A stretch of 64,000 nt of DNA from Desulfomonilia bacterium. GTDB taxonomy: Bacteria > Desulfobacterota > Desulfomonilia > UBA1062. The position numbers were made by a program, and so were the translations under genes. Numbering within the stretch: position 1 is the first letter of the stretch; each line of letters starts with the position of its first letter. The notes beneath the pieces were generated by a model. That model was not told the DNA's origin. It did no database searches and worked only from the letters and a program-made list of their open reading frames with translations. This document shows positions 28,913 to 48,985 of the stretch, in pieces. Where the stretch lies: the NCBI GenBank assembly GCA_963664325.2, contig CAXXDQ010000003.1, positions 544,001 to 608,000 on the forward strand. The letters run 5' to 3'.

Positions 28913-30345
28913 TCAGCCCAGAAGTTTTTTCAGGGGCTCTTCTTCCCTCGATACCTCAACATTATCGTTGTCCGATTTTCTCCTGCTTATCAGAAAACGT
29001 TTAAGCCTGTAATGTGCTTCAGCACTCAGTGGAAAGTTCCTCATTGAGGCAATACTTGCAAGCAGAAAGATAACCGGGATAAAAATAAACATTACCCTGA
29101 GCGTAATAATAAAGGATTGGTCCTGCAGTTGCGGGATATTTCCAATTGGAGGTTTATAACCGGCGAACTCCAGGGCTAGTGAAAGAAGGAAAAGTATTGA
29201 GGCTGAACTCAGTTTCCGGATGAATATGAATATCCCGGCATAAAGGCCTTCCCGTCGTTCCTTTGAAAAAAGATCATCAATATCCGGCATGTCAGGGTAA
29301 ATTGCATATACCATTGCCATCACTCCGGCCATTCCTAAGCCTATAAAGGCAGTATAGAAATAAAAAAGCTATTACTGGGAAGCCAGGTTTCAGGATTATG
29401 CCTGCAACCATTATAAATGCCCAGAATGCAGCACCGGTAATGAAGGCGAATCCCTTGCCCTTTCTTTTGCTTATCATTACGTAAAATGGAATCATGAGTA
29501 TCTGAATAGCTACGAGTGTTCCGATCATGTAGTTTGTTATGCCGGGTTTATTTATATAATAGGACATATAATAAACAATCAAAGCCATTATCAAATCAAG
29601 TGCAAGGTAGATGAATGTGACACTTATAATGAACTTTCTGAAGGTCTTGATTTTAAACGGCTCAAAAAAATCTGTAAATCTGAACGATTTTTTTATGGGA
29701 GGCAATATTTGTACGCCTTTCTTTTGTTGAGAGAAAGACTGCAATGTATGGCAGCGCAAAGGCAATGCCGAATATTAAAGACATTACCCAGTATCCAGTG
29801 GCTTTGTCATAAAAATGTTTAATTATTTCCATCGGAATAACCGCACACAAGAGCACCGAACCCATACCGAAAACCATTCTGATAGACATGGCGGAAGTGC
29901 GCTCGTGGTAGTCCATTGTTATCTCGGTTGAAAAGGCATTGTATGAAGTTGTTACAATACCCATGACAGTTGTAAAGATTATATAGGTGCATAGTGAATA
30001 GGCAAAGCGTGATAATGAGTTCTCAAATCCCGGGGAATACCACAGGAGGAAAAAGCTTAGAGCAATCAGCGGAATGCTGATAAGGAAAAAAGGTCTGCGG
30101 CGTCCCATAGGAGTTTGCATCCGGTCGGTGTAATGGCCGAAGAAAGGGTCAAATACCGCCCCCCATATTTTGCTTGTGAGCAGGATTATTCCGGCCAGGA
30201 ATGGGCTGATCCTGACAACATCGGTAAGAAATATCAGGTAAAGGGTGCCGACAATGATCATTGACCCGCCCAGGATATCACCAGAACCGAAGCATATTTT
30301 TGTCATGAGGCTGAGTCTGTCTGCCGGGTTGGTGTCTTTATACAT
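28913..30345 (-). pseudogene. MFS/GPH (MelB-like) glycoside-cation symporter in three frames (real pseudogene or sequencing indels)
   Basis: DPFFGHYTDRMQTPMGRRRPF, ERTSAMSIR, RREGLYAG motifs. Continuity is restored by removing one base near 29690-29725 and one in the A6 run at 29362-29367. Confidence 0.8.
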
Positions 30346-31699: not shown

Positions 31700-31731
31700 G
31701 TCGCTTGGCAGGTAAGTCATATATTTATATT

Positions 31732-32028
31732 ATGAACCTGAAATCATGGATAGGCATTATGGGGCTTAAGCAAAAGGTTGTGGCTGAGAACCTCGGCATA
31801 TCAACAAGCTATCTTTCAGAGATACTGACAGGGAAGAAAAAACCCACAATCGAGCTTGCCCAGAGAATTGAGGAATATACCAACAATGAAGTGCGGCGTC
31901 TTGATGTGCTGTACCCTGTGAAAAAGCAGCAGACTGAAGACATTTTGGAGCAGCAATCTAACATGTTTATTTCAAGAGGAACGCCGCTTACGCCCGAATT
32001 GTGTAAAAAGGTTCTTTCGGGAAACTGA
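31732..32028 (+). CDS. XRE/Cro-like helix-turn-helix regulator
   Basis: QKVVAENLGISTSYLSEILTGKKKP HTH; LAQRIEEYTNNEVRRLDVLYP tail typical of Cro/YdaS-like proteins; ATG 31732 preferred to TTG 31705. Confidence 0.8.
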   Translation: MNLKSWIGIMGLKQKVVAENLGISTSYLSEILTGKKKPTIELAQRIEEYTNNEVRRLDVLYPVKKQQTEDILEQQSNMFISRGTPLTPELCKKVLSGN

Positions 32029-32094
32029 TTTTATTAATTAATTTTTACCGGTTTTCATATCCGGCTGATTGATAAATTGAAAAGGAGGTCTGTA

Positions 32095-33570
32095 GTGTTA
32101 AGATATAGTGTATTAATTTCAGTTTTCATTATTATGACAGCTTTATGCGGCTGCAACAGGATAACATCTGTTTCACCTGACACATCAAAGACAATAGTCA
32201 TGAGCCCGGGCGAGATGAAAACTTTCTCTTTCACTAGCATTGCAAGCGGTCCTCTTGTACGGCAAAGATGGCATACTCCAACAGATGTTGATACGTTGCG
32301 TTTTGGTTCCAGTGGAGCATATGTTTTTTGGCCGAATAAAAATAATATCGGGGAAAACTATATTTCATTCGATGTGCAGAGTTATCTTATTATAAGCATA
32401 GTTCCCCCCATGGATAAGGTCTTGTGGAGTGACAGCCGAACTTGGACAGTAATTGTAAAAGGGGTTGAAGTAAAGCCATTTGAAAACAATGTCCCGGCAG
32501 TCGGCAAATCCGTGGAATATACAGCCAAAGGATGGCCCGAAGGAAACTATGATTATACATGGGATCTTGATGGCAATGTTGTAGGCAGCGGTGACACTTA
32601 TACATTTACACCGAGATTTGAGCAAATTGGCAGGCATACACTAAATGTCAAAGCAATCGGAGAAGGAAATGAATTTGAACATAAAAGGGAAATATATGTC
32701 CCTTTATACGAATCTAATGGGCATTCTCTTTTCACTACTCTTGATGGTGGATATATTATCGGTGGGAGAAATGAGAACAATACTTGGTACACTGCTATTG
32801 TTAAACTTGATTCCTATGGCCAGGAAGAATGGAGTTTCAAGGGGGATTATAACCCAGGGTATGTAATTCCAACTGCTGATCAAGGATATATCGGTATTGA
32901 GAGAAATTATTATGACAATCCAGGATGTAATATAATAAAATATGATGGATCAGGTCATGTTCAATGGGTGAAAGAATATCCAGATTATCCAGCTCCATAT
33001 CTGATAAGGGAAGTATATAACAATGGTTATATAATAACGGGATATGGATATTCAGGGATTGAATATGAATCCTATATCTTGAAAATTGATGAATCGGGTG
33101 AGATTGAATGGTACAAATCAATTGATGGAATTGGAAAAGATATAGTACCCATGCAAGAAGACGGATATCTGGCAGTCGGTCCAAGAAGTCTGTTTTTTCT
33201 GGATTCAAATGGCAATGTCAAATCAAGTCGGGAGTTTTCAGAAGAAATACATTCTGCATGGCCTGATAAGGACTTTATAAAGATATTAGCTGGTAGTGAT
33301 TTGCTAATGAAATATTTTGATGACGGTACTGTTCAGAAAATAAAACTGCCGTGTATTATATCCGGAGGTGAACCCACCTCTGACGGCGGGCTTATCTGTA
33401 GGTCAAATTCCTTTATCACAAAATTAAATTCAATGAATAGGATAGAGTGGGAAAGAGAAATCCGTTCACCAGATTATGTTCATCAATGTGAAAACGGGAG
33501 TTATTTGATAAGCTGTGGGGATTGGGCTACCCCATATGTTATCCTGAAACTCGACGCAAACGGGAATTAG
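32095..33570 (+). CDS. Lipoprotein: Ig-like module + second Ig/PKD-like domain + beta-propeller repeats
   Basis: SD aggagg + GTG 32095; lipobox LCGC; YTWDLDGNVV; repeated T.DGGYI..G and KLD..G...W motifs. Confidence 0.75.
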   Translation: MLRYSVLISVFIIMTALCGCNRITSVSPDTSKTIVMSPGEMKTFSFTSIASGPLVRQRWHTPTDVDTLRFGSSGAYVFWPNKNNIGENYISFDVQSYLIISIVPPMDKVLWSDSRTWTVIVKGVEVKPFENNVPAVGKSVEYTAKGWPEGNYDYTWDLDGNVVGSGDTYTFTPRFEQIGRHTLNVKAIGEGNEFEHKREIYVPLYESNGHSLFTTLDGGYIIGGRNENNTWYTAIVKLDSYGQEEWSFKGDYNPGYVIPTADQGYIGIERNYYDNPGCNIIKYDGSGHVQWVKEYPDYPAPYLIREVYNNGYIITGYGYSGIEYESYILKIDESGEIEWYKSIDGIGKDIVPMQEDGYLAVGPRSLFFLDSNGNVKSSREFSEEIHSAWPDKDFIKILAGSDLLMKYFDDGTVQKIKLPCIISGGEPTSDGGLICRSNSFITKLNSMNRIEWEREIRSPDYVHQCENGSYLISCGDWATPYVILKLDANGN

Positions 33571-33577
33571 CTGATTG

Positions 33578-33607
33578 CAGGCCAGGAGCATTCGCCTGGC
33601 CTGTTTT
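33578..33607 (+). terminator. Rho-independent terminator
   Basis: CAGGCCAGG-8 nt loop-CCTGGCCTG followed by TTTT. Confidence 0.7.
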
Positions 33608-33632
33608 GTAAATGAATGTAATTGGGGTCTAT

Positions 33633-35477
33633 ATGAAAATAAAAATAGTTTTATCGATGTGTGCTGTTTGTCTTATTTTTGCAGGCTGTGAACCTTTTGC
33701 AGTCCAAGACCCGGAATTGAACAAGGCCTGCACGACCTTGGAGCGGTTTATTGTCCAGCCGCACTCCGACATTGTGGAACTGCTCGCAGCCCAGGGGCTG
33801 ACGCCGGTCGGCAGTGTCACCATCGCTGATCCTGCAAGCGGTAAAATCTACACCGGTTATCTGGCCACTTTCGACGGCGCCTATTCGGAAGGCGCCAACG
33901 CTGCTAGCCAGCATATCGGGCCCCTGCCCAAATACTGTCTGGTGCTGTCAGGCAGTTCCTACTGCATGGGCTATCAGATGGGCTATCTCCTGCCGGCCCA
34001 GACCCAGCTCATGACAGGGAACTTCCTGGACAAGGCGGCCGAGGCGCTCACCAACGTCAAACGTACCGACTTCCCTAAATTCTATGACTTCTTCAAGAAC
34101 GAAGTTCGCAAGCTCTGCGAGGACGCACGGCCCGTGATCCCGGATTACCTCGAAGAGGAAATGGCCGGCATGGCTGCCGGGGCCACTGCGCATGGCTATG
34201 CAGTCGACGCCCGCGACATCATGCTCATGAACGAGGGCTTCGACGCCATGTATGCCATCCTTTCAACTGGCGTCCTTCCGAGCTTTCAGGAATTTGTGAA
34301 TCTCCTTGCCGGCAAACGTGCCCAGCTTGCCGCCGCCAAACAGACTGATGTCCTTAAGCGCATTGACGCCAGCTTGAGCGTTTCAGGCGGCCGGGTGCTC
34401 TTTCCCCGCGCCGATCCCTACATCATGGGCTGCAATGAGTTCATCGTCTCTGGCAATGCCACAGTTGGCGGTGCAGTCTATCACGGACGGGACTTCATGT
34501 TCGTCACCGGCGACATATACCAGGACACCTCCTGTGTGGCCGTCTATCTGCCCGAGCAGGGGCACCCATTCATCACTGTCACCACACCGGGATTCGTTGG
34601 CCACCCCACGGCGCTCAATGACCAGGGGCTTTCCATGGGCATGGACGTGGTTCGCGGGGCATGTACACGTCCGACCCCCGGCATGAGCTCCCTGTTTGTG
34701 TTGCGTGATATCGTCCAGAACAGCGCCGGCCTGGACGAGGCCGTGGCGCGCATGAAGGCCATGGACCGAGGCGTATCCTGGTTGTACGTCATCGCCGACG
34801 ATGAGCGTAGCGCCACATACACCAACGGTGTGGTAGTTGAGCAGGGCCGCAGTGATCCATCCTATACCGGGCCGGACCTCATGCCCTTCTGGAATCAGAT
34901 CCTGCTCTGGCCACTCATCATAAGGCTCAAGGGCCAACCTATGCCGGAGCGGGGCATTCTGGTCAGAGACCAGTCCTGGGTCTATCCGGATGTGTTCAAG
35001 AACGTCAGCATCGGGACGTTTAACGGCGATGACATGGATTACAAACTCTATTTTCCGGACCAGCTCGAGACCTGGCCGGATGTAGTTGTTGCAGGCAACC
35101 ACTATGTTATCCCGCGCATGGTCTTCACCACCTACAATCCGTTAATCGGACTCATAGGCGGAAAGATTGAGAAGACCGTATTCCGGTACAACAAGATGGT
35201 CGAACTCATTGGCAATGACTATGGCAAGGTTGATTACGCAAAGGCCCGTGAGATCATCGATTTTCTCAATCCCAATCGCGGAATCGATAATCTCAAGCGT
35301 TACAAGATTGGCGGGCCGGTAGAGGGCCATCACGCGATCATAGATAACAGATCGCGCACGGTGGAAGCCCTCTTCGGGTATTACGGCGACTGGGAGGGCG
35401 GAGTGGACGACGTCTGGGTCAAGCTGGACCTGAAGCCATTCGCGGCCTGGCTGTACTCCACAGAGAAAAGCAACTGA
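33633..35477 (+). CDS. Lipoprotein Ntn-hydrolase, peptidase C45 / acyl-CoA:6-APA acyltransferase family
   Basis: Lipobox FAGC; GYQMG, EEMAGMAAG, MG|CNEF autoprocessing Cys, HGRDF, ALNDQGL; visibly more GC-rich than its neighbours. Confidence 0.8.
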   Translation: MKIKIVLSMCAVCLIFAGCEPFAVQDPELNKACTTLERFIVQPHSDIVELLAAQGLTPVGSVTIADPASGKIYTGYLATFDGAYSEGANAASQHIGPLPKYCLVLSGSSYCMGYQMGYLLPAQTQLMTGNFLDKAAEALTNVKRTDFPKFYDFFKNEVRKLCEDARPVIPDYLEEEMAGMAAGATAHGYAVDARDIMLMNEGFDAMYAILSTGVLPSFQEFVNLLAGKRAQLAAAKQTDVLKRIDASLSVSGGRVLFPRADPYIMGCNEFIVSGNATVGGAVYHGRDFMFVTGDIYQDTSCVAVYLPEQGHPFITVTTPGFVGHPTALNDQGLSMGMDVVRGACTRPTPGMSSLFVLRDIVQNSAGLDEAVARMKAMDRGVSWLYVIADDERSATYTNGVVVEQGRSDPSYTGPDLMPFWNQILLWPLIIRLKGQPMPERGILVRDQSWVYPDVFKNVSIGTFNGDDMDYKLYFPDQLETWPDVVVAGNHYVIPRMVFTTYNPLIGLIGGKIEKTVFRYNKMVELIGNDYGKVDYAKAREIIDFLNPNRGIDNLKRYKIGGPVEGHHAIIDNRSRTVEALFGYYGDWEGGVDDVWVKLDLKPFAAWLYSTEKSN

Positions 35478-35562
35478 GCCATATATGAATAATGAAAAGG
35501 TGAGGCAGGCAACTCCAGGCAGAAGTAATTAAAACATTAAATATTTAAGGAGGGTTGATATT

Positions 35563-37281
35563 ATGAAATCATTAACATTCGCAAAAAGGTTTATGGTTTT
35601 GGTGGCGGTGTCATGCCTGAGCATCTCTGTTGCCGGATGTGTTATTTCTTCGTCACCGGAGAACAAAACATTGACATTTGAACCAGGGGATAAAATGGAG
35701 TTCAGCGCAAAAGTGTCCAGTTCATGCTCAATGGTTACGTGGTATCTATCAGACAAGGATGAGCCGAACTATGGAAATATAACTTGGTATGATGAATTTC
35801 TACTCTTTGGAACTTCAAATATTTCGGTTATAGCTGAAGAGAGGTTTGCTGGTGAAAATATTGTTCACTTAGAAGTACGGGATTTTATTATTTTACCAAT
35901 ACCAACGGGAGGCCTCCCTTTTTACATTGAAATACCAGCAACTAACATATATTGGAAAGTTACAGTAAACGGTCTTGCAATAACCCCAAATCTTTACAAA
36001 TCAAATATTACTGTAGAACCCGGGAAGACTCAACATTTCGAGGCAGAGGCATATCCGAAGGGCGACTATCAATACTCATGGGTTTTTGATGGAGAGGTTA
36101 TCAGCAGCAATGATTCATTTGATTTCACCCCATCTTTCACTCAGACCGGCATTCATAAGCTGGAAATCAGTGCTGTATCGACTTCAAGAACTTTCAGCCG
36201 TCAGTTTGAAATTGCTGTTCCCCACAGGATAGTAGATCTCAATGGCTATAATAGTCAGTGTGTTTTATTAAAAGATGGAAGTTATGCAACCTGCAATAGT
36301 TCAGAATCAGGATGGGTATTATCAAAATTAAATTCAAACTTTATTATTGAATGGACGCAGGTGCTTGGAAATTATGATGACGCACCGTTCGTTGAACTCC
36401 TTAATGATGGGACCTTGATGGCAATATTTTCTGATCATATGGTTAAACTATCTGGTCAGGGGCAAATATTATGGGAAAAGGAATATCCAGCGTCTCTTGG
36501 GTCTATAATTTTTAAGGAAACTTCAGAAGGGAAATTTCTTCTGGCAAGCGACTCAAAAATTTACCTGCTGGACAACGACGGCCAGATCATCTGGGAGAAA
36601 GATACAAACGGACGAGTCAGCTCTATAGATATTATAGATGATGGAGGTTTTATAATAGGAGGACAATCAAATCGAACAGATATCCCAGGAACAGTAAATC
36701 ATGGAGGATATGACTGCTATATAGCGAAGATTGACAGTTCGGGAAATATTGAATGGGATAAGCTGTACGGCGGTTCAGGAGATGATGGTGTTTCTTCAGT
36801 AAAGAAAACCTCTGACGGTGGATATATCCTTGCCGGTTACTCTAATTCGACCGATCTAGGAACAATAGGTTATGGCGAACATGATATTTATATAATTAAA
36901 CTCGACCAGTACGGCGATATTGTCTGGCAAAGGCTCTATGGCGGGACAAATTGGGATGATGCGACTGATATAATACAAATCTCCGGCACAGGATATATGG
37001 TTTCAGGCAATTCATATTCAAAGGATATACCTGGGACAATATGGCTTGGGGCACATATGCAGGAAAAAACTGGAGAACGGACACATAGCAACGGGTTGAT
37101 AATGAAAATTGATGATAACGGTAATGTCATGCGCCAGACGCTTGTTGGGGGTATCGACAATGATTTACTGGAAAGCTTTATAATTGATCCCGATAACAAG
37201 ATTCTATTACCAGGAATTTTCTCAGGCGTCTCTTCAGGTTCAGAAAAAAAGGATGTTATTCTTGATCTGAGTAATTATTAA
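35563..37281 (+). CDS. Lipoprotein: Ig-like module + Ig/PKD-like domain + beta-propeller repeats
   Basis: SD aaggagg; lipobox VAGC-VISSSP; YGGSGDD...TSDGGYILAG...IIKLD.G..W repeats. Confidence 0.78.
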   Translation: MKSLTFAKRFMVLVAVSCLSISVAGCVISSSPENKTLTFEPGDKMEFSAKVSSSCSMVTWYLSDKDEPNYGNITWYDEFLLFGTSNISVIAEERFAGENIVHLEVRDFIILPIPTGGLPFYIEIPATNIYWKVTVNGLAITPNLYKSNITVEPGKTQHFEAEAYPKGDYQYSWVFDGEVISSNDSFDFTPSFTQTGIHKLEISAVSTSRTFSRQFEIAVPHRIVDLNGYNSQCVLLKDGSYATCNSSESGWVLSKLNSNFIIEWTQVLGNYDDAPFVELLNDGTLMAIFSDHMVKLSGQGQILWEKEYPASLGSIIFKETSEGKFLLASDSKIYLLDNDGQIIWEKDTNGRVSSIDIIDDGGFIIGGQSNRTDIPGTVNHGGYDCYIAKIDSSGNIEWDKLYGGSGDDGVSSVKKTSDGGYILAGYSNSTDLGTIGYGEHDIYIIKLDQYGDIVWQRLYGGTNWDDATDIIQISGTGYMVSGNSYSKDIPGTIWLGAHMQEKTGERTHSNGLIMKIDDNGNVMRQTLVGGIDNDLLESFIIDPDNKILLPGIFSGVSSGSEKKDVILDLSNY

Positions 37282-37330
37282 CCGTTAAAAAATTGAAGTG
37301 GGTTCTCACGAAAGTTATTGGAATGAAAGG

Positions 37331-37381
37331 GGGTCAGTCTCAACATTAAACAGCTTGTTGTCAATTGTTGAGACTCGACCC
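37331..37381. repeat. REP-like palindrome
   Basis: GGGTC-AGTCTCAACA ... TGTTGAGACT-C-GACCC arms around a ~20-nt spacer. Confidence 0.6.
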
Positions 37382-37389
37382 TGGAGGAA

Positions 37390-37560
37390 ATTGGCGGCAC
37401 GGTGGAGTGACATTGCGCGATCATAGATAACAGATCGCGCACGGTGGAAGCCCTCTTCGGGTATTACGGCGACTGGAATAATGGTGTTGAGGATGTCTGG
37501 GTGAAGATGGATATAAAACCCTTCGCAGATTGGTTTTACTCTACACAGCTCGGCGCTTAA
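37390..37560 (+). pseudogene. 3' remnant of a C45 peptidase paralogue
   Basis: Translates IGGTVE*HCAIIDNRSRTVEALFGYYGDWNNGVEDVWVKMDIKPFADWFYSTQLGA*; 37416-37476 is identical to 35333-35393. Confidence 0.85.
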
Positions 37561-37610
37561 GAAATTTTATGAATCATGAAATGGCAAAATTTATAAGGGG
37601 GATTTTAATT

Positions 37611-37733
37611 ATGAAAACATCAACTTTGGCAAAAAGATTCATTGTTTTGGTTTATGCTTCATTTTTGAGCCTTTCCATAACGGGCTGTCTTATTTCTTCA
37701 TCACCTGAGAATAGTACAGGGAGGGTATCATGA
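37611..37733 (+). pseudogene. 5' remnant (signal peptide + lipobox) of a paralogue of the 35563 lipoprotein
   Basis: MKTSTLAKRFIVLVYASFLSLSITGCLISSSPENS versus MKSLTFAKRFMVLVAVSCLSISVAGCVISSSPENK. Confidence 0.75.
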
Positions 37734-39322
37734 AAAAACAGTATTTATTGCTAGTTATCTTTGCCGTGTTGGCCGCATCAAGCGGCTGCGTAATCACTGC
37801 TACACCGGACCCTTCAAAACAAGTCACAATTAATACAGGCGAGGAAGTTGTTCTTAACATTGTATGTTCGAACTTTCTAGGTCTGGTCGGCTACAGATGG
37901 AATGTCTTTGAGGACGGCGAGGCGTTAAACCCGGTTTTGAATACAGATGGCCCGAATAAAAACAGGCAATATACATTTGCAACTGAAATCCCCGGCCGCT
38001 ACAAGATCATGGGTACTGCAATCCATTATGTCATTTCAAAGGATGTTCCCCCGATCGTTTTGTTCAAAGAGGTCTCGCGCGAGTCAAGGGAATGGGATGT
38101 TATTGTCAAAGGCGTCAGGATATCACCATTAAAAAGAAATCTTGTATTATATGGCAGTCCTAATGAGTTCAAGGCAACCGCCTATCCAGAAGGCAATTAC
38201 AGTTATGAATGGAAGCTTGACGGCAATATCGTTTCCTCTTCAGATACATGTAATATCTCTCCTGGCCTTTCTGATTCAGGCTGGCGCAGGCTCGAAGTAA
38301 GGGCCGTTTCAGAAAGCGCACAGTTTTCTGCCTTCAGAGAGATCCATCCTGCCAAGCTTCTTGCCGGTTCCTCCAAAATAGCTGGAATTGATACGACTGG
38401 TCATCTGGCGGTTAATGGCGGCAGGCTGATTAAATACGATTTGCAGGGGAGCATCGTGTGGGAATACACAAACGCAGAAATTGATTTGAGCAGATACGGT
38501 TCAATAATCAAGTCCACACCGGACGGAGGGTGTATTTTTTTAGGGAGTGACATTGATTTCAATTACAGGCTGGGAAAAATCGACGGCACCGGACAACTCA
38601 AATGGGAGACAGGGATGCTTGAAGTGTCAGATCCTTCCCTCAACGATATTATACCCGCATCAGACGGCGGAATCATTGCTGTTGGAAAGGCAGGAAACAC
38701 TATTAACAGCTATTATAAAGAAGGTATGGTTATCAAAATCGGTCCTGCAGGCAGCATTGAATGGACCAGCATGCTGGGAGATATTAATTCCCATGATGTT
38801 ATCCTTGCAGGCCAGGCTCCGAATGGTATTTGCTATCTTGTTTCAGATGAAGTCAACAAATCGTTGGTAATCGTTATCGATGGAAATGGTTTGGTTGTCA
38901 GAAGTACTGTTGTCAGCGAACCGCTTAACATTATCCGCATGGTCCCGACCTCAGACGGCGGATGCATAATTGCCGGTTATGACTGTGTGACCAAACTCGA
39001 TGCACTCCTTGAAGTACAGTGGAGCAGGAAGTTTTCAGAAGATTTACAAAACTGCTCCATTATCGACATCGTACAGGGATCAGCCGGCGGGTATGTCTTT
39101 CTCGGGAGCAAAAAACTGCTGTACCAGCCATACAGGTTTTCATACGGGGTGTTCGTCACAACAATTGATGAAGACGGTGACATTCTTGGTGAAAAAACTC
39201 CTTTCATTGTAGAGGAAACTTCCGGGGAACATGCTGATTATCTGAGACTGACGCCTGTAGATAACGGTTATTCCTTTGTTTATCACGATTACATGATAAG
39301 GCTGGATGGTTCAGGGGATTGA
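37730..39322 (+). CDS. Lipoprotein: Ig-like module + Ig/PKD-like domain + beta-propeller repeats
   Basis: SSGC-VITATP; ATAYPEGNYSYEWKLDG shared with 32095 and 35563; TPDGGCI, SDGGII repeats. Confidence 0.75.
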   Translation: MKKQYLLLVIFAVLAASSGCVITATPDPSKQVTINTGEEVVLNIVCSNFLGLVGYRWNVFEDGEALNPVLNTDGPNKNRQYTFATEIPGRYKIMGTAIHYVISKDVPPIVLFKEVSRESREWDVIVKGVRISPLKRNLVLYGSPNEFKATAYPEGNYSYEWKLDGNIVSSSDTCNISPGLSDSGWRRLEVRAVSESAQFSAFREIHPAKLLAGSSKIAGIDTTGHLAVNGGRLIKYDLQGSIVWEYTNAEIDLSRYGSIIKSTPDGGCIFLGSDIDFNYRLGKIDGTGQLKWETGMLEVSDPSLNDIIPASDGGIIAVGKAGNTINSYYKEGMVIKIGPAGSIEWTSMLGDINSHDVILAGQAPNGICYLVSDEVNKSLVIVIDGNGLVVRSTVVSEPLNIIRMVPTSDGGCIIAGYDCVTKLDALLEVQWSRKFSEDLQNCSIIDIVQGSAGGYVFLGSKKLLYQPYRFSYGVFVTTIDEDGDILGEKTPFIVEETSGEHADYLRLTPVDNGYSFVYHDYMIRLDGSGD

Positions 39323-39387
39323 CTTCTAGCCAGGCAAACCAAGCCGGTTTGTTTTAAATAAAAGTTAAAAAAATTGGAGGTTGTATC

Positions 39388-40722
39388 ATGAAAAAAGGAA
39401 GATGGCTGGTATTTGGACTACTGGGAATGGTTCTGGCGGTTGGATTGTCCGGGTGCATTATCTCGACCTCTCCGGACTCCAGCAAAGTTATAGTAATGAA
39501 CCCGGGCGAAACAAAGGTTTTCAAGGTAAGCGGTGTGAATCTCAATACATCCATAACAAAATGTGTGTGGTCTATCCCCAGGAAGGATGGAAATCCTGCT
39601 GAAGTTTTTGAGAACACAGATCATGTAGAATTCACGGTTAATCCTGAAGGCGAAAAGTCTAACAGGGTGATAATAACTTGTGAATATTGGAGGTGGTTAT
39701 ATATGCCCCCTAGTCCTTTGATTGGTTCGGGTGGGTGGGGATGGGTTCCAACAGGCATAAGGACCTGGAACATCTGCGTACCTAGAGATACCGCGCCAGT
39801 CTGGCAGGGGAATTATTATATAACGGACAGCACAGATGTGCAGATGCTGAACGGCTACACTGAAATCACAGGTGTTTTAGATATCAGTAATAGTAATTTA
39901 AAGAGTCTGGAAGGGTTAGAAACCCTGACTAATATTGGTAGAGACTTGCAAATTTCTGATAATACCGCCTTAACAAGCCTGTCCGGTCTTGAGAACTTAA
40001 CATCGGTCGGTGGATACTTGGAGATTGGGAGTTATGGGGAGGGCAATCACGCCTTAAAAAGCCTGTCCGGTCTTGAGAACCTGACATCGGTTGGTAGTAC
40101 GCTGGACATTTGTAATAATGCCGCCTTAACGAGCCTGTCCGGTCTTGAGAACCTGACATCGGTTGGTAGTACGCTGGACATTTGTAATAATTACGCCTTA
40201 AAAAGCCTGTCCGGTCTTGAGAACATCACATCGGTTGGTGGAGACTTGTGTATTCAGTATAATTACGCCTTAAAAAGCCTGTCCGGTCTTGAGAACCTGA
40301 CATCGGTTGGTGGAAGCTTGTATATTGATGATAATGTCATCTTAACAAGTCTATCCGGTCTTGAGGGCTTAACATCGGTTGGTCGGGAGTTCTGTATTAG
40401 GACTAATGCCTTAACAAGCCTGTCCGGACTTGAGAACTTAACATCGGTTGGTTGCTTGGTTATCGGGGACAATGCCATCTTAAGAAGCCTGTCCGGGCTT
40501 GAGAACATAACATCGGTCGCTAGCTTGTCTATTTGGGGGAATCCCGCCTTAACGGCATTGGGAATGTCAGGCCTGCAAAGAGTTGATCGGGATTTCGTAA
40601 TAGAGGATAACCCCCTGCTTTGTACATCATTGGCCGAAGAACTTATGAACCAGGTCCTTGCAGGCGGAGGCATCGGCGGCACCATCTATATCAGCAACAA
40701 CAAGGAATGCACCACGCCATGA
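39388..40722 (+). CDS. Lipoprotein: Ig-like module + leucine-rich (receptor L-domain-like) repeats
   Basis: LSGC-IISTSP; about 9 copies of LxSLSGLENLTSVGGxLxIxxN; cap NPLLC...NNKEC. Confidence 0.85.
   Translation: MKKGRWLVFGLLGMVLAVGLSGCIISTSPDSSKVIVMNPGETKVFKVSGVNLNTSITKCVWSIPRKDGNPAEVFENTDHVEFTVNPEGEKSNRVIITCEYWRWLYMPPSPLIGSGGWGWVPTGIRTWNICVPRDTAPVWQGNYYITDSTDVQMLNGYTEITGVLDISNSNLKSLEGLETLTNIGRDLQISDNTALTSLSGLENLTSVGGYLEIGSYGEGNHALKSLSGLENLTSVGSTLDICNNAALTSLSGLENLTSVGSTLDICNNYALKSLSGLENITSVGGDLCIQYNYALKSLSGLENLTSVGGSLYIDDNVILTSLSGLEGLTSVGREFCIRTNALTSLSGLENLTSVGCLVIGDNAILRSLSGLENITSVASLSIWGNPALTALGMSGLQRVDRDFVIEDNPLLCTSLAEELMNQVLAGGGIGGTIYISNNKECTTP
39960..40560 (+). repeat. Intragenic ~75-bp tandem repeats (LRR units)
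   Basis: Constant core GCCTTAA..AGCCTGTCCGGTCTTGAGAAC.TGACATCGGT.GGT plus a variable ~30-bp segment. Confidence 0.9.
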
Positions 40723-40740
40723 GGCGATAAAGAGACTGGG

Positions 40741-40778
40741 CACCGGCTCCCGGGCTTGACCCGGGGGCCGGGTGTTTT
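40741..40778 (+). terminator. GC hairpin/terminator, copy 1
   Basis: CCGGCTCCCGGG-CTTGA-CCCGGGGGCCGG followed by GTGTTTT. Confidence 0.7.
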
Positions 40779-40805
40779 GAATTAAAAATCAGTTTGGAGG
40801 AACCA

Positions 40806-41930
40806 ATGAAAAAAGGAAGATGGCTGGTATTTGGATTACTGGGAATGGTTCTGGCGGTTGGATTGTCCGGGTGCGTTGTCTCGACCTCTCCAGGCACGGA
40901 AGATGTCATACTAATGAACCCGGGCGAAACAAAGGTTTTCAAGGTTAGCGGCGTGAATCTCAATACACCCCTAATAACAATGTGCAGGTGGTCTATCGAC
41001 AGGAAGGATGGAAATCCTGCTAAAGTTTTTGTGTACACAGATCATATAGAATTTACTGCTAATCCTGAAGGAGAGAAGTCTAACAGGGTGATAATAACTT
41101 GTGAATATTATAGGTGGTTATATGTGCCTTTTACTATTCCTGGCTATTGGGTTTTTGGATCAACAGACAGCAGTACCTGGAACATCTGCATACCTAGAGA
41201 TACCGCGCCAGTCTGGCAGGGGGATTATTATATAGCTGGCAGGACTGATGTGCAGATGCTGAACGGCTACACTGAAATCACAGGTGATTTAGATATCATT
41301 AATAGTAATTTAAAGAGTCTGGAAGGGTTAGAAAACCTTACTAATATTGGTGGGGACTTGTATATTTTAGGTAATGACGCCTTAACAAATCTATCCGGTC
41401 TTGAGAACCTTGCATCGGTGGGTGGAGACTTGGCGATTGGGGAATTTTATTATATGGGAAATGCCGCCTTAACAAGCCTGTCCGGTCTTGAAAGCTTAAC
41501 ATCGGTTGGTGGGGAGTTGATGATTAATATTAATAATGAGTTAACAAGTCTGTCCGGGCTTGAGAACTTAACATCAGTCGGTGGAGGCTTGAATATTGGG
41601 AGAAATTCCGCCTTGACAAGCCTGTCCAGTCTTGAGAACCTGACATCGGTTGGGGGATACCTGGCGATTTGGGAGAATACCGCCTTAACGAGCCTGTCCG
41701 GTCTTGAGAACCTGACATCGGTAGGTGGAGACTTGTGGATTCACTCTAATTATGCCTTAACATCTTTAGAAATGACAGGCCTTCAAAGGGTTGATGGGTA
41801 TTTCGAAATATATTATAACCCGCTGCTTTGTACATCTTTAGCCGAGGATCTTATGAACCAGGTCCTTGCAGGCGGAGGCATCGGCGGGACAAGATCTATC
41901 CACGACAACAAGGAATGCACCACGCCATGA
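40806..41930 (+). CDS. Lipoprotein: Ig-like module + LRR repeats, tandem paralogue of 39388
   Basis: Identical signal peptide MKKGRWLVFGLLGMVLAVGLSGC; about 6 LRR units; near-identical 3' end; SD ggagg before ATG 40806. Confidence 0.85.
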   Translation: MKKGRWLVFGLLGMVLAVGLSGCVVSTSPGTEDVILMNPGETKVFKVSGVNLNTPLITMCRWSIDRKDGNPAKVFVYTDHIEFTANPEGEKSNRVIITCEYYRWLYVPFTIPGYWVFGSTDSSTWNICIPRDTAPVWQGDYYIAGRTDVQMLNGYTEITGDLDIINSNLKSLEGLENLTNIGGDLYILGNDALTNLSGLENLASVGGDLAIGEFYYMGNAALTSLSGLESLTSVGGELMININNELTSLSGLENLTSVGGGLNIGRNSALTSLSSLENLTSVGGYLAIWENTALTSLSGLENLTSVGGDLWIHSNYALTSLEMTGLQRVDGYFEIYYNPLLCTSLAEDLMNQVLAGGGIGGTRSIHDNKECTTP

Positions 41931-41948
41931 GGCGATAAAAAGACTGGG

Positions 41949-41986
41949 CACCGGCTCCCGGGCTTGACCCGGGGGCCGGGTGGTTT
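41949..41986 (+). terminator. GC hairpin/terminator, copy 2
   Basis: Same hairpin sequence as 40741. Confidence 0.65.
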
Positions 41987-41999
41987 GAATTAATATTCA

Positions 42000-42080
42000 G
42001 TAATCTCGACGTCTCCTGGCACCGGCAATGTGATATTAATGATCCTGGGTGAAACACAGTTTTTCAAGATGAATCTGTAA
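42000..42080 (+). pseudogene. Fragment of a third lipoprotein N-terminus
   Basis: VISTSPGTGNVILMILGETQFFK versus VVSTSPGTEDVILMNPGETKVFK in the 40806 gene. Confidence 0.7.
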
Positions 42081-42619
42081 ATGAAATACATGATGTTGAT
42101 GATGCCAGACTTTGTCCGATAGGTGTCAACCAGTTTAAAAAGGATAATACGGGCCTTTCGAGCCTTACAGTGTATGGTCTTGGTTGGATGAGTTCTGAAG
42201 GGGGCGGACGATATTGGAATTACCCGTGGTTTTCAGAAGCTTATTAAAATCTTATGGTTCACTGGGAACCGCTTTTAAGGGCAGGATTCAAAAGGAAACA
42301 GAAGATTTCCTCAAAAGATAAAATGTCCTGTGGAGGTCTTGAGGTATCCGGAAATGAAGGCTTCCTCCCCGGATACCGTGCCGCAATGCTTAAACTTTCT
42401 GACAATCTTTCAGTTATCTATTTTATTAATGAGTCCTATTCTGATGAGATCAGAGACGAATCGAGAATCCAGCCAAAAAGATTTAGACATTATGCTTCAG
42501 CATGCGATGGGGCGCCTGAGTTGTTGAAAACTGACGGCGCTTTTCCCCATGATAGAGTGAAAGTTATCAAGCTGGAATACGTTCTATTAAAGATTGCTGC
42601 CAGTTTTAATAGGCCTTAG
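42071..42619 (+). pseudogene. 3' remnant of a paralogue of the 27107 serine hydrolase
   Basis: ESVNEIHDVDDARLCPIGVNQFKKDNTGLSSLTVYGLGWMSSE... aligns to 28301-28855; in-frame TAA at 42245; no SxxK half. Confidence 0.85.
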
Positions 42620-42643
42620 AATATTTGTTATTGATTTCCACTA

Positions 42644-42671
42644 TTGAATATGTCCTATTATATAGTATAAT
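42644..42671 (+). promoter_or_regulatory. Putative sigma70 promoter for the two short lipoproteins
   Basis: TTGAAT-16 bp-TATAAT. Confidence 0.45.
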
Positions 42672-42750
42672 TTAAGATCAAGTTGTTGAATGAACTTTTA
42701 ATGCTTTAATATGTATATGAACATTGTTTTAAGAAAGAGAGGTAGAAAAC

Positions 42751-43101
42751 GTGAAAAGCACAATGAGAATGGTAATGATTTTATTAATCTCCCTGATGTT
42801 TTCAAGTTGTATAATTTCTTCATCTCCCGAAGGGAACTCATTGAGCCTTAGCGAATCACAATATCAACTGTTTTTGGTTGCAGCTGCAAAACCAGCATTT
42901 CCATCCAATTCTTCCTTGCACTATAACTGGTTTATTGACGGAGTCTGGAAAACAGAGAACCCGTCAATTTTCTATTCTCCGTCTGCTTCCGATATCGGCA
43001 ATACTGTAACCATCCTGTGCCGTGTAACTGTGACGAATGACAATAATGGTGTAATAACCTCGAGTGATGACCGTAAATGGCAAGTAACAGTGACTCCTTA
43101 A
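42751..43101 (+). CDS. Small lipoprotein consisting only of the shared Ig-like module
   Basis: FSSC-IISSSP; YNWFIDG; ends SDDRKWQVTVTP; SD gagagg. Confidence 0.75.
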   Translation: MKSTMRMVMILLISLMFSSCIISSSPEGNSLSLSESQYQLFLVAAAKPAFPSNSSLHYNWFIDGVWKTENPSIFYSPSASDIGNTVTILCRVTVTNDNNGVITSSDDRKWQVTVTP

Positions 43102-43135
43102 AATTTTAAAGCAGAAAGAGAAAGGAGAAATACTC

Positions 43136-43477
43136 ATGAAAGCATTAAAATATTTAGGATTACTTATCGTGATGTTATGCCTGTCAGGATGTATAATAGT
43201 ATCAGCTACGCCGGAACAGTCTGAGATATCGATGGACATCGGGGATAGTGTTAATTTTACTATTGTTGCATCAAGTATGGGTTATCAGGGCAGCATAGTA
43301 CAATCCTGGTATGTCAATGATATAAAAACAGGATGGTCCACGGTGAGTTTTCCATTCTTTGCACTCAGTTCAGGGACCTTTGAGATAGAAGGGAGAGTTG
43401 ACATAGTCAGGCATTTGAAAACAGGTGATAAAATAGTTGCTACCGAATCACGATTCTGGACAGTCACCGTTGAATGA
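43136..43477 (+). CDS. Small lipoprotein consisting only of the shared Ig-like module
   Basis: LSGC-IIVSATP; SWYVND; ends TESRFWTVTVE; SD aaggag. Confidence 0.75.
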   Translation: MKALKYLGLLIVMLCLSGCIIVSATPEQSEISMDIGDSVNFTIVASSMGYQGSIVQSWYVNDIKTGWSTVSFPFFALSSGTFEIEGRVDIVRHLKTGDKIVATESRFWTVTVE

Positions 43478-43655: not shown

Positions 43656-44342
43656 TTATTTCATCTTATACCGTTTTTCATAAAGCCCGCTGTCGAATGG
43701 AGCCCTCCTGCCCGGGCAGTCCTGACGCGGACAGAGCTGGCAGTTGTGGAATATTTCTCCTGAAGCGTAGGTCAGGCCGCTAACCGATTTGAGAGGTTTC
43801 ATAAGGAAGCTCTCGTTTAGCATTATTCCTATATCGGCGGTTTCTTTTTTCATCAGGGTGAACAGTTTTGCCTGCTCCGTTATCGGCCAGTCCTCAAGGG
43901 AACCGGGGTTCATGGTTGAGACGGTTTCGGCATCCAGAATCCGTTTAATCCTTTCATTTACTTCCTGCATGGCGGTGCCCAGGGCGAGAAACATTATGGT
44001 GTCTGCCCAGAACTGTTCTAGGTAACTGTCAAACTGTGAAGACCAGTCATCAAGCTCGGTCCCACAGGTTGCGGCAAAAACAGTCAGATTCGGAGAGTCC
44101 TTCAGGTTGACTGAAAGGACACGGCTGTTAAGCGTTATGCCTTCTACGGTAATGAAGTCGTCTCCGCAATTCATAATATCCAGAACCCTCAAGGCGGCCT
44201 TTGGCTTTGCAACTTCCAATGCCGATCTGGAAATTTCAGAAAGCCTTAGGGCCAATGATGAACCCGGACGCACCTTTAACCCTTCACGGAGAAGCCCTTC
44301 ATCGATGTCAAAGGGTATATTGTCAATGATTATGGATTCCAT
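43656..44342 (-). CDS. Vitamin B12-dependent methionine synthase activation-domain-like protein
   Basis: ATCGTELD, MNPGSLEDWPITEQ, MKPLKSVSG, CQLCPRQDCPGRR; corrinoid operon context. Confidence 0.75.
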   Translation of the reverse strand: MESIIIDNIPFDIDEGLLREGLKVRPGSSLALRLSEISRSALEVAKPKAALRVLDIMNCGDDFITVEGITLNSRVLSVNLKDSPNLTVFAATCGTELDDWSSQFDSYLEQFWADTIMFLALGTAMQEVNERIKRILDAETVSTMNPGSLEDWPITEQAKLFTLMKKETADIGIMLNESFLMKPLKSVSGLTYASGEIFHNCQLCPRQDCPGRRAPFDSGLYEKRYKMK

Positions 44343-44354
44343 TCAGACCTCTCT

Positions 44355-45911
44355 TTACGGAAAATTTATAGAATCTATGAAAACCTTCTGGAAGGACGAA
44401 TCCTGAGTGAGTACAACCTCTTCGGTTAAGTCCCTGAGATTTTTTGCCATATCTTCAAACCCTTTCTCGAACGAGGCTTTTTCGGCTGCCATAAGGCTTG
44501 TATTGCCCAGGAAAACCCAGCCGGCATTATTAAATTGAGGAATAAAACCAAGCCTTCTGAAAGATTCAATATCCAGGTGTTCACCCAATGCTCCGGCCAG
44601 GACAACATTTTTTATCTCGGCTTCTTTTATGCCCGCCTTTTGCAGCAGAAGCTGGGAGGCCGCCAGGCTTGCCGCCTTTGCAAGCTGAAGGTTTCTTATG
44701 TCCATCTGGGTCAATTTTATATCTTCCCAGAGCAGTATCTCCTTGATGCCATCCCGTTCTGAATATCTTGCCGGTCGGGGAATGCCGCCATGGTTTATTA
44801 CGCCCGTTTTGCTGATCGTTCCTTCTCCCAGCAATAAAGAGACGAGGTCAATGATGGCAGTACCCGTTATGCCTGCCGGTCTGCCTTCGCCTGCCATTTC
44901 ATAAACAAGTCCATCCTGTGAAGTTTTAATATGTGTTATTGCACCGTCGTCGGCAGTCATGCCGCAGGACATGTTCATTCCTTCAAGGGCCGGGCCCATG
45001 GCGCAGGACGTTGCCATGGTCCTGCCTGAATCATCTGCCAGAAACAATTCGCCGTTTGTACCGAGATCGATGAAAAAGGTGTTCTTTTCCAGGCCCCTTT
45101 CACGGCACATGGCCAGGCCTGCAACAAGGTCGCTTCCGAGGTATGCGGCCCGTGAGGGCAGGGCGGAAACCTCTGCATTAATGAACGCATCGCCGCCGAT
45201 TTCTGCTGCATGATTACCGGTAAAGTCCAGCAGGGGAGCCTTGTAAGGTGCATAGCCTATCGGTGCCGGGTCGATTCCATAAAAGAGGCAGAGCATGGTT
45301 GTGTTTCCTGAAAGAATGAATCTGGTAACCTTTGATGGAGATATGCCTGAAAAATCGCATGCCTCTTTCGCGCTGATAAAAACCGCCTCCCTTATCAGCG
45401 ACGACATGCGTTTCATGGCCTTGGGGTCAGCCGCAGCAGCTATCCTTGAGATAACATCCTGCCCGTATCGTCTCTGGGGGTTAAGGAATGACGGAAGCCG
45501 GTAAACTTTTTTCGCTCCGGTGTCCACAAGAGACATTTTCACCGTAGTGGTGCCTATATCAGCGGCAAATGAGACTACTTCAGGTTTCTGAATTCGCTGC
45601 AGCCTGGGAAGCTCATCTCCAGTCTCAAGCGCTTCCTTATGATGGCCTTTCCTTTCAATATAAACGCTTATGTCGGTGTTGATTTCCTGCTTGCATGCAA
45701 GCACGTCATTAAACGGCTTGCCATCAATTGATATGCTCACCTTGCATTTGCCGCATGAGCCTTTGCCCCCGCAAGGGGTTTTCAAAAGGACACCCATGTC
45801 AAGCAGGGCTTCCCATAAAGGCATACCTGAAGGGAATTCTTCTTGAGGACCCTCAGGTAAGAGCTTGAGCTTAAACAGCCTGTCGGCCATCTCTGAACCC
45901 GGGTGCTTCAA
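44355..45911 (-). CDS. Reductive activator of corrinoid proteins (2Fe-2S + ASKHA ATPase, RACo/DUF4445); start may be ATG 45890
   Basis: CGGKGSCGKC...LAC; DIGTTT; NPQRRYGQDVISRI; DLGTNGE; GPALEG; LAGALG. Confidence 0.88.
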   Translation of the reverse strand: MKHPGSEMADRLFKLKLLPEGPQEEFPSGMPLWEALLDMGVLLKTPCGGKGSCGKCKVSISIDGKPFNDVLACKQEINTDISVYIERKGHHKEALETGDELPRLQRIQKPEVVSFAADIGTTTVKMSLVDTGAKKVYRLPSFLNPQRRYGQDVISRIAAAADPKAMKRMSSLIREAVFISAKEACDFSGISPSKVTRFILSGNTTMLCLFYGIDPAPIGYAPYKAPLLDFTGNHAAEIGGDAFINAEVSALPSRAAYLGSDLVAGLAMCRERGLEKNTFFIDLGTNGELFLADDSGRTMATSCAMGPALEGMNMSCGMTADDGAITHIKTSQDGLVYEMAGEGRPAGITGTAIIDLVSLLLGEGTISKTGVINHGGIPRPARYSERDGIKEILLWEDIKLTQMDIRNLQLAKAASLAASQLLLQKAGIKEAEIKNVVLAGALGEHLDIESFRRLGFIPQFNNAGWVFLGNTSLMAAEKASFEKGFEDMAKNLRDLTEEVVLTQDSSFQKVFIDSINFP

Positions 45912-45999
45912 CGACCAGGACTGTTCCGCATGAATTTTCCCGGAAGGAAGCTGGTAATACCCGTTGCAAAAGCCGCAATTAAAGTAACAGATAAGCCCA

Positions 46000-46635
46000 T
46001 CAGGAAGCGAGGCTCAGTTCGTCGAAGATGCGGACGGCCTGTACTGCGTTTTCACCGTAAGCGTCCGCGCCCATCTCGTCGCAAAGCCTCTGAGACGTGC
46101 AGGCCCCGCCGATTGCAACCTTGGCCTTGATGCCCGCATTCTTCAGGCCCTGAACGACCTGTGATATGTTGCTGACCATCGTGCTGAGAAGAACGGAAAG
46201 CCCGACCAGCCTGGCCCCGGTTTCTTTAGCCGTCCTGACGATCTTGTCCGCATCCACGTCAACGCCCAGGTCTATCACCTCGAACCCGTTTGCACCGAGC
46301 AGCATGCCCACGATGTTCTTGCCTATCTCATGGATGTCGCCCTTGACGGTTGCCAGGATGACCTTGCCTTTTTTCCCTGCTTCATTCGGGTCCATCTTCG
46401 CCTTGATAAGCGGCATGGCCTCGTTGACGACTTCGCCAGCCATGACGAGGTCGGCCAGGAAATATTCCCCGGACTCGAAGAGCTCGCCCACCCTGGCAAG
46501 TCCCGGGGCTATGCCGTCCTGTATGATGGCTATCGGGCTCACCCCCTCTGAAAGGCACTGCTCGACAAGCACCAGTATCCCGTCAATGTCCATTTCCTCG
46601 ACAGCCTTATTAACCTTAAGTAAACTCTCGCTCAT
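46000..46635 (-). CDS. Corrinoid (cobalamin-binding) methyl-acceptor protein
   Basis: VGELFESGEYF cap; GDIHEIGKN (DxHxxG); DLGVDV; IGGA. Confidence 0.93.
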   Translation of the reverse strand: MSESLLKVNKAVEEMDIDGILVLVEQCLSEGVSPIAIIQDGIAPGLARVGELFESGEYFLADLVMAGEVVNEAMPLIKAKMDPNEAGKKGKVILATVKGDIHEIGKNIVGMLLGANGFEVIDLGVDVDADKIVRTAKETGARLVGLSVLLSTMVSNISQVVQGLKNAGIKAKVAIGGACTSQRLCDEMGADAYGENAVQAVRIFDELSLAS

Positions 46636-46650
46636 ATCGGCTCCTTTTTT

Positions 46651-47814: not shown

Positions 47815-47818
47815 AAAG

Positions 47819-48982: not shown

Positions 48983-48985
48983 GTA

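Follow-up and report, generated by a model that had tools for sequence, protein, structure and literature searches.

The 64-kb window analysed here (Desulfomonilia bacterium, contig CAXXDQ010000003.1, positions 544,001 to 608,000) contains an array of seven intact plus-strand genes and two 5' fragments, running from 32095 to 43477, whose products are predicted lipoproteins that share an immunoglobulin (Ig)-like N-terminal module (N-module). Coordinates refer to the whole window, and genes are named after the start position of each open reading frame (ORF). The N-module spans ~95–112 amino acids (aa) and lies directly behind the lipobox cysteine in all seven genes. What follows the module differs: three genes continue into a second Ig domain and a β-propeller, two into leucine-rich repeats (LRR) and two into nothing, as an initial annotation of the sequence had claimed. 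That annotation had also recognized the lipobox-led module in the seven plus-strand genes and both fragments and had placed the first start at 32095, in agreement with the ORFs, the alignment and a profile built solely from sequences outside the window.

The three propeller-type genes are 32095 (32095–33570; 491 aa, GTG start, Cys20), 35563 (35563–37281; 572 aa, Cys26) and 37730 (37730–39322; 530 aa, Cys20). An AAGGAGG sequence at 32083–32089 precedes the GTG start with a spacing of 5 nt. 32095 and 37730 are collinear with 35563 and with each other at 26–28% identity (E 1e-31 and 5e-37, the latter between 37730 and 32095 at 28%). The two LRR-type genes follow: 39388 (39388–40722; 444 aa, Cys23) encodes 24-aa (72-nt) repeats and a Cys-containing cap ending in CTTP, with a terminator-like hairpin 3' of the gene (40743–40771), and 40806 (40806–41930; 375 aa from the ATG at 40806, Cys23) is its tandem duplicate with fewer LRR units. 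The module-only genes 42751 (42751–43101; 116 aa, Cys20) and 43136 (43136–43477; 113 aa, Cys19) close the array, downstream of a promoter-like site at 42644–42671 (10/12 matches). Outside the window, 43136 has four homologues of 113–134 aa at 75–88% identity and 42751 has two of equal length (P0053 and P0107). Since both proteins are conserved at the same length elsewhere, 42751 and 43136 are genes in their own right.

Each of the seven genes begins with a basic n-region and a hydrophobic stretch that end in a lipobox, which reads, in gene order, LCGC, VAGC, SSGC, LSGC, LSGC, FSSC and LSGC; these assignments were made by motif alone, and SSGC and FSSC have an unusual residue at –3. The cysteine is followed by the motif (K/N-R-)I/V-x-S/T-x-S/T-P-D/E. 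Aligning the seven modules shows C1, P8, W40 and W90 to be invariant and the closing strand to follow the pattern SRxWxVxV. Pairwise identity between modules is 19–29%, rising to 71% for the tandem pair 39388/40806. Profiles of four sub-families aligned with one another by hhalign at probabilities of 96.8–98.7% (E 3e-10 to 3.5e-16), scores that are inflated because these profiles contain the signal peptides. The stricter comparison was a hidden Markov model (HMM) that was built from 39 outside sequences stripped of signal peptide and cysteine, and run against 868 ORFs of the window and of two related loci from other genomes (L001 and L002, described below). This HMM recovered 7/7 window genes at E ≤ 6.8e-6 (6e-19 for 32095 and 1e-8 for 42751) and matched no other window ORF. 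An HMM made from the 22 LRR-type outside members alone recovered 5/7 at E < 0.01, missing 35563 and 42751. By these sequence comparisons the seven modules are homologous and form a family that is coherent but deep.

The family carries no name. No Pfam or NCBIfam model matches the module at threshold in any of the seven genes, and the sub-threshold PKD and I-set matches (E 6e-4 to 0.03) lie on the second Ig domain rather than on the N-module. Searching PDB sequences with the module profile returned nothing below E 0.13, its only matches being antibody light chains at chance level; the same kind of search with alignment A7 matched through the LRR part only, to the L domains of insulin and EGF receptors. 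Literature searches found no description of the module family.

The predicted structures of two members point to one fold. An AlphaFold2 (AF2) model of mature 43136, based on a 50-row alignment, is an all-β, complete eight-strand sandwich (pLDDT 90.1), in which the first strand starts at residue 3 after the cysteine and the last strands are long (residues 62–76 and 79–94 of 95). Full-length 35563 was modelled at pLDDT 85.8 with a signal helix (2–23), the strands of the module (27–135), the second Ig domain (137–219) and the propeller (232–553). Its first strand (27–31) lies right behind Cys26, and the module repeats the eight-strand pattern of 43136. In the models the F and G strands are ~15 residues each, giving a long F–G hairpin, and 42751 and 43136 are predicted to stop 1–2 residues past the last sandwich strand. 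The expectation that the modules would share both a fold and significant HMM similarity thus holds, for the fold in the two proteins modelled and for the HMM in all seven.

Foldseek comparison of the module with the PDB gave weak, generic matches, none of them at E ≤ 1e-3. The best were to the N-terminal Ig-like domains of the Bacteroides surface lipoproteins SGBP-B (6e57; E 1.2e-3, TMq 0.59), BtuH (7biz) and BT1487 (4r5o); others were to PKD domains of the collagenase ColG, to I-set Ig domains and to fn3-like domains. No FimA/Mfa pilin was among the matches listed.

The kinship of the module is more readily appreciated from a profile search of 1.84 billion cluster representatives, whose 393 hits at E ≤ 1e-3 are of two kinds. 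One consists of giant proteins of 0.5–4.2 thousand residues with 4–24 matching stretches each and E values down to 1e-57; Ig_3, PKD, Big_7 or related domains are present in every one of the 16 scanned, and for most giants the best-matching stretch extends over no more than roughly the first half to two thirds of the profile. The other comprises proteins of 113–577 aa that match the whole profile once, right behind a lipobox. These number 43 among the best 150 of the 393 matches (40 identified by pattern, and P0008, P0053 and P0117 by eye), three of them being the window's own. Because the profile matches Ig_3/PKD/Big_7 repeats, the module is a divergent, unnamed branch of a ubiquitous fold, and because the giants match from profile position 2–4, its S-x-S-P stretch corresponds to strand A of an ordinary Ig_3/PKD repeat. 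We also considered C-x-I-x-S-x-S-P as a special sorting signal, an idea set aside as the less likely one, since internal repeats of the giant Ig_3/PKD proteins match this stretch too.

In common with Ig_3/PKD/Big_7 repeats (PF13927, PF00801, PF18911 and PF17957), the module has a predicted β-sandwich, an x-S-x-P strand A, a core tryptophan in strand C and a closing W-x-V-x-V. It differs from them in being single, in its direct fusion to the lipobox cysteine, in its long F and G strands and in scoring below all Pfam thresholds. Atlas neighbours of the module proteins are PKD/Ig_3-like with scores ≤ 0.91, which are leads only. Among clusters that the Atlas names automatically, those of the Bacteroidota 'PKD-like family lipoprotein' resemble 42751 in length (~130 aa) and in having one PKD-like domain; the score of 0.88 is below 0.9, so this likeness too is a lead only. 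PKD Pfam models match fewer than half of the members of that cluster, and a literature search did not find the name. Judged from profile matches and models together, the module is a divergent Ig_3/PKD-like domain that now occupies, as a fixed feature, the first position in a family of lipoproteins. The initial annotation was right in seeing a shared Ig-like module with interchangeable C termini; its further suggestion of a new display or assembly system, with the module as polymerisation unit, sits poorly with the relation to ordinary Ig_3/PKD/Big_7 repeats and with the completeness of the fold.

The C-terminal domains belong to better-known families. 39388 matches the Pfam families Recep_L_domain (E 1.3e-20) and LRR_EndoS (1.4e-11), and 40806 likewise matches Recep_L_domain (1.7e-18) and LRR_EndoS; the 24-residue units are of the Receptor-L/EndoS/BspA kind. 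All LRR members of the window end in N-K-D/E-C-T-T/A-P (40690–40722 and 41898–41930), as do 4/5 complete ones in L001. A conserved D-N-P-x-L-C-x-x-L-A-E-E-L cap precedes this end, and the two together probably form a disulphide-bonded LRR cap. For the propeller of 35563, 2574 relatives were found at E ≤ 1e-5 among 8000 candidates scored. About 66 of the best 120 listed homologues carry PF18962, the T9SS (type IX secretion system) sorting tail, and several are named accordingly; this tail identifies those propeller relatives as secreted or surface proteins of Bacteroidota. Foldseek matches the 35563 propeller to propellers in general, including BtuG, BT1487, BamB (9p1u_B, E 6e-9; 7tt2_B) and leptospiral Lp49. 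PQQ_2/BamB Pfam matches in the propeller genes are sub-threshold, and the LipL53/SBBP-repeat model NF047494 scores 22.4 bits on 35563 and 12.7 bits on 32095, below its cut-off of 400.

The three architectures of the window (module + LRR, module + Ig + propeller and module alone) recur outside it. Among the 39 outside representatives scanned, 22 have Recep_L/LRR domains, 3 are of the propeller type, 2 have an additional PKD/BiPBP_C domain and 12 match no family. Eight of these 12 are ≤ 170 aa, and P0007 and P0008 look like truncated LRR forms. By domain matches, then, three module architectures with interchangeable C-terminal domains are present in other organisms. The arrangement in arrays recurs as well. 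A search with a 5-row module alignment found two related loci, which together with the window make up the genomic context considered here. L001, from a metagenome-assembled genome (MAG) of an uncultured Bacteriovoracaceae, has six same-strand module + LRR genes and a C45-family gene; L002, from a Desulfobacterales MAG, has two adjacent propeller-type genes. The best-matching L001 module is 55% identical to the query alignment.

A C45-family gene also lies inside the window's array, between 32095 and 35563 (33612–35477, plus strand; an alternative start at the ATG at 33633, reading MKIKIV...FAGC, is possible). Its product, which has no N-module, is Ntn-hydrolase/isopenicillin-N acyltransferase-like and scores above both curated cut-offs, with 93.6 bits against 85 for the NCBIfam model NF040521 (C45_proenzyme) and 27.9 against 23.2 for the Pfam family AAT (PF03417). 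These matches predict a C45-family autoproteolytic acyltransferase/hydrolase lipoprotein. The protein has no PDB relative by sequence at E ≤ 0.01. Its counterpart in L001 (1885–3726; a 613-aa lipoprotein) is 74% identical (446/600), and in both loci the C45 gene is the second of the array. C45 is thereby far better conserved than the modules, whose best match in L001 reaches 55%. We detected 77 C45 relatives, several of them named carcinine hydrolase/isopenicillin-N N-acyltransferase family proteins, from Desulfomonilia, Syntrophaceae, Deltaproteobacteria and Thermodesulfobacteriota MAGs. The lipobox pattern occurs in 43/77, a count that misses several with a clear signal peptide and cysteine. 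Many relatives are lipoproteins with a Ser-rich tether, and the distant homologues P0331 and P0334 themselves carry PKD domains. The window C45 gene has 56% GC and 70% GC at third codon positions (GC3), its array neighbours 39–46% and 32–49%, respectively. The L001 C45 gene is likewise GC-rich (GC3 62%), neighbours across both genomes having a GC3 of 32–52%.

Traces of earlier duplications are spread through the array. Downstream of 35563, on the plus strand, 37387–37548 holds what is left of another C45 copy, namely its 3'-terminal 54 codons (direct repeat D8, alignment A8), 78% identical by tblastn to C45 residues 565–618. It is followed by a copied intergenic region and the first 37 codons of a 35563-like gene, which break off just after S-S-S-P-E-N. 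This 5' copy is the first of the two array fragments (37611–37733, plus strand): it encodes a signal peptide and CLISSSPENST before a stop, matches an HMM of the 17-row module alignment at E 6e-6 and overlaps the start of 37730. The position of the C45 remnant directly upstream of a lipoprotein 5' fragment implies that a unit of C45 and lipoprotein gene was once duplicated. On the sequence evidence, the C45 gene would hence be a conserved companion of the array and part of its duplicating unit.

A more recent event concerns the LRR genes. 39388 and 40806 are 88–89% identical in DNA over blocks D3, D5, D6 and D7, with different numbers of LRR, which identifies them by sequence as a recent tandem pair. 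The 3' end of the LRR gene and its hairpin are present a third time (repeat D5, 41754–42001; hairpin 41967–41981). There follow the second array fragment, a module start without signal peptide that was recognized by translation (~41994–42080, plus strand; YSVISTSPGTGNVILMILGETQFFKMNL), and a plus-strand pseudogene piece of β-lactamase fold (S12-like) at 42059–42619. The latter contains a frame break and lies outside the module family, marking a rearrangement; it is a paralogue of 27107–28855, with 73% identity to residues 395–575 by tblastn (repeat D4). Within the tandem pair, the ratio of nonsynonymous to synonymous substitutions (dN/dS) is 0.69 for the module and 0.36 for the C-terminal cap. 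The signal peptides of the pair (39388–39453 and 40806–40871) are identical in protein and differ by one synonymous change in 22 codons; module dN is 0.18. In both array fragments the break comes immediately after S-x-S-P, and recombination or conversion may act preferentially at the 5' end. We also weighed a cassette system for phase or antigenic variation, in which the fragments would serve as silent donors, and set it aside: each of the two fragments occurs once and is short, duplication and deletion account for both, and the array showed no switch element, whether invertible or repeated.

Proteins of similar design are known from other phyla. Bacteroides SGBP-B, SusE/F and BtuG/BtuH resemble the array proteins in combining a lipid anchor, one or more proximal Ig-like domains and a distal binding domain. 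This is a likeness of design, not homology: the matches of the module to Bacteroides surface lipoproteins, which belong to a different phylum, are weak (E ≥ 1.2e-3, 10–14% identity). Bacteroides surface lipoproteins have an acidic export motif after the cysteine, which is missing from the module proteins in the pattern-matched set. Unlike SGBP/SusE-F loci, the window has no SusC/SusD or TonB-dependent transporter gene among the ORFs scanned. The module also starts 1–3 residues after the cysteine, whereas the SGBP-B study mentions an eight-residue linker in the context of cell-surface mobility (PMC4850273). Leptospira Lp49, a lipoprotein that pairs an Ig-like domain at the N terminus with a propeller at the C terminus, resembles 35563 (Foldseek 3bws, E 1.8e-8, TMt 0.54); the N-modules of Lp49 and LipL53 have no detectable sequence relation to those of the array.

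Taken together, we favour the view that the array is a tandemly expanded, lipid-anchored envelope family that carries variable binding domains on a tether-less Ig pedestal and is renewed by unequal recombination, and consider it probable, if some way from certain. It builds on the homology of the modules, their predicted Ig fold, the recurrence of architectures and arrays and the duplication history. Signal peptidase II would cleave the precursors to leave an acylated cysteine directly next to strand A of the Ig-like domain, with no flexible tether between them. Anchored in this way in the outer membrane and facing outward, the Ig-like domain with its long F–G hairpin would act as a rigid membrane-proximal pedestal. 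Its far end would carry a Receptor-L/BspA-like LRR solenoid or a second Ig domain with a delta-60-like β-propeller, either of which may have a ligand-binding or adhesin role; in two genes it would carry nothing. Unequal recombination between paralogues would both enlarge and change the repertoire, leaving behind the 5' fragment, the module fragment and the C45 remnant. A precedent for the pedestal comes from the SGBP-B study, whose authors propose that the Ig domains hold the binding site out at a distance from the membrane (PMC4850273).

Several points weigh against the pedestal model. Lipidation, membrane location, orientation and ligand are all inferred and none was observed here, and this holds for the surface location in the initial annotation as well. 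The module-only proteins 42751 and 43136, which have homologues of like length in other samples, carry no payload and are not explained by a pedestal role alone. The module dN/dS of 0.69 in the tandem pair suggests more than a constrained scaffold. The Foldseek matches of the propeller include chains of BamB, and propeller lipoproteins such as BamB are oriented towards the periplasm. The Foldseek matches of the module itself are weak, none reaching E ≤ 1e-3. The window ORFs scanned include no machinery for surface-lipoprotein export, no TonB-dependent transporter and no partner of a similar kind. Finally, a pedestal gives no explanation for the conserved C45 companion.

The question of orientation gives rise to one competing reading, in which the same pedestal points inwards and the proteins act on envelope components as periplasm-facing outer-membrane lipoproteins, in the manner of BamB or Lpo. 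By the Escherichia coli Lol rule, a lipoprotein without Asp at +2 is sorted to the outer membrane, where by default it occupies the periplasmic face; among the 40 pattern-matched sequences the +2 residue is I in 16, K in 12 and another residue in 12, with one D. The BamB structures among the propeller matches, the sub-threshold PQQ_2/BamB matches and the want of a surface-export factor among the window ORFs scanned fit this reading. Most of the listed propeller relatives are extracellular T9SS cargo, however, the LRR are of a Receptor-L/BspA/EndoS type found in secreted and surface proteins, and fast divergence and changing copy number suit exposed proteins better than housekeeping envelope factors. 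The relatives of the payload domains and the fast divergence thus appear to favour the cell surface, whereas the default sorting rule and the BamB precedent would, by analogy, favour the periplasmic face; an inward orientation strikes us as doubtful, if quite conceivable. Rather unlikely, to our minds, is a capture-and-process cassette comparable by analogy to polysaccharide utilisation loci, with C45 as its functional core and the module proteins as variable partners that bind or present substrate. Such a cassette would account for a C45 gene that is 74% identical and second in position in both the window and L001, and for the duplication of C45 and lipoprotein gene as one unit. Moreover, P0274 (C45, 76% identity) and P0003 (a 43136 homologue) both list a 5731-nt contig, which suggests a third co-occurrence; 43/77 C45 homologues have the lipobox pattern, and two distant ones carry PKD domains of their own (P0331 and P0334). 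Only two outside loci were inspected, though, and L002 (4 kb) shows no C45; no transporter or other pathway gene is linked, and no substrate can be named. The composition of the C45 gene (GC3 70% against 32–49%) speaks against a common origin, not against a common function.

The initial annotation had likened the array to lipoprotein-derived type V pili, a likeness that finds no footing in the models. In that reading the module would polymerise by strand exchange after proteolytic removal of its N-terminal strand, with the short proteins as shaft and the long ones as tips. Type V pilins have a FimA/Mfa-type fold and assemble by strand exchange, donating one or more C-terminal strands to the next subunit. 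The module is a single Ig domain of 95–112 aa, and neither the FimA/Mfa1 fold nor donor strands have a counterpart in the array: the monomer is modelled at pLDDT 90 as a complete sandwich without an open groove, 42751 and 43136 stop with the last strand, which leaves no C-terminal strand to donate, no Pfam pilin family was matched and no FimA/Mfa protein is among the listed Foldseek matches. Nor was an usher, anchor or gingipain-like protease gene found among the window ORFs scanned, and strand A, including S-x-S-P, belongs to an ordinary Ig_3/PKD repeat. What the array does share with type V pilins is the lipoprotein precursor, which in their case matures through gingipains (PMC9046445). The two module-only genes behind their own promoter-like site and the long F–G hairpin, which could be an interface, also suit a polymer. 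The conserved C45 lipoprotein hydrolase could in principle process the precursors; going by the family name, C45 enzymes act as amidohydrolases or acyltransferases rather than as endopeptidases. A complex prediction for mature 42751 with mature 43136 scored 0.04 (mark 0.32), which counts neither for nor against binding. We regard a pilus-like polymer as very improbable. Somewhat less remote, although still a long shot, is a bolder idea, that the array and C45 form one dedicated envelope system of Thermodesulfobacteriota-like bacteria. C45 would process the module proteins (by release, N-terminal remodelling or activation) or the ligands that they capture, and the Ig module would serve as its recognition handle.

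The surroundings of the array give some indication of its host. An efflux set of OEP/TolC-like, HlyD-like and AcrB-like proteins at 55.7–61.3 kb assigns the window to a Gram-negative bacterium. Upstream of the array lie, in order, a non-ribosomal peptide synthetase (NRPS) cluster, a β-lactamase-fold gene, a frameshifted MFS_2 transporter gene, a PAS gene and an XRE-type helix-turn-helix (HTH) gene. The array and NRPS genes are AT-rich (39–46% GC) compared with ~51–52% GC in core genes on the right side of the window. Directly upstream of the first array gene and on the same strand, 31705–32028 encodes a small XRE-type HTH protein (HTH_3, E 4e-10), with the PAS-domain protein divergent from it; both may be regulators.

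The NRPS cluster (65–27034) encodes two multi-module proteins of ~3100 aa with condensation (C), adenylation (A) and peptidyl carrier protein (PCP) domains, followed by a free-standing C domain and then by a C-A-PCP protein with a reductase (NAD_binding_4) at its end, a protein that fuses SDR and ATC_hydrolase, and a type II thioesterase. Directly after it, 27107–28855 encodes a 582-aa β-lactamase-fold (S12-like) protein with an N-terminal hydrophobic stretch, of whose C-terminal third the piece at 42059–42619 in the array is a 73%-identical fragment; with prodrug-activating peptidases as analogue, a role of this protein in maturation of the NRPS product is only a thought. The MFS_2 sugar-type transporter gene (28913–30345, minus strand) is split over three overlapping frames that cover profile positions 1–199, 221–321 and 331–426, and by this pattern is probably a pseudogene with two frameshifts. 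Downstream of the array, a corrinoid-dependent methyltransferase operon (43656–50158, minus strand) comprises a RACo-like activase, a B12-binding protein, three URO-D/MtaA-like genes (two scanned, one recognized by translation) and a Met_synt_B12-like protein. The array propeller weakly resembles the B12-binding surface lipoprotein BtuG, as one among many propellers, and we draw no link to this operon. The products of 51597–52337 (246 aa) and 53406–54026 (206 aa) match no Pfam or NCBIfam family.

The array thus brings to light an unnamed lipoprotein sub-family, for which clustering at 50% identity gives no fewer than 40 representatives beyond the window, and a family model for the module would improve the annotation of envelope proteins in poorly studied anaerobes. 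A lipid anchor with an Ig pedestal and an LRR or propeller binder is a design already familiar from Bacteroides and Leptospira. Three features stand out here: an Ig domain fused to the lipid anchor without a tether, an array that turns over rapidly and, as the most promising thread, the conserved linkage to C45. If the array and C45 do act as one, they would represent a new capture-and-cleave or lipoprotein-processing system that works without SusCD or T9SS.

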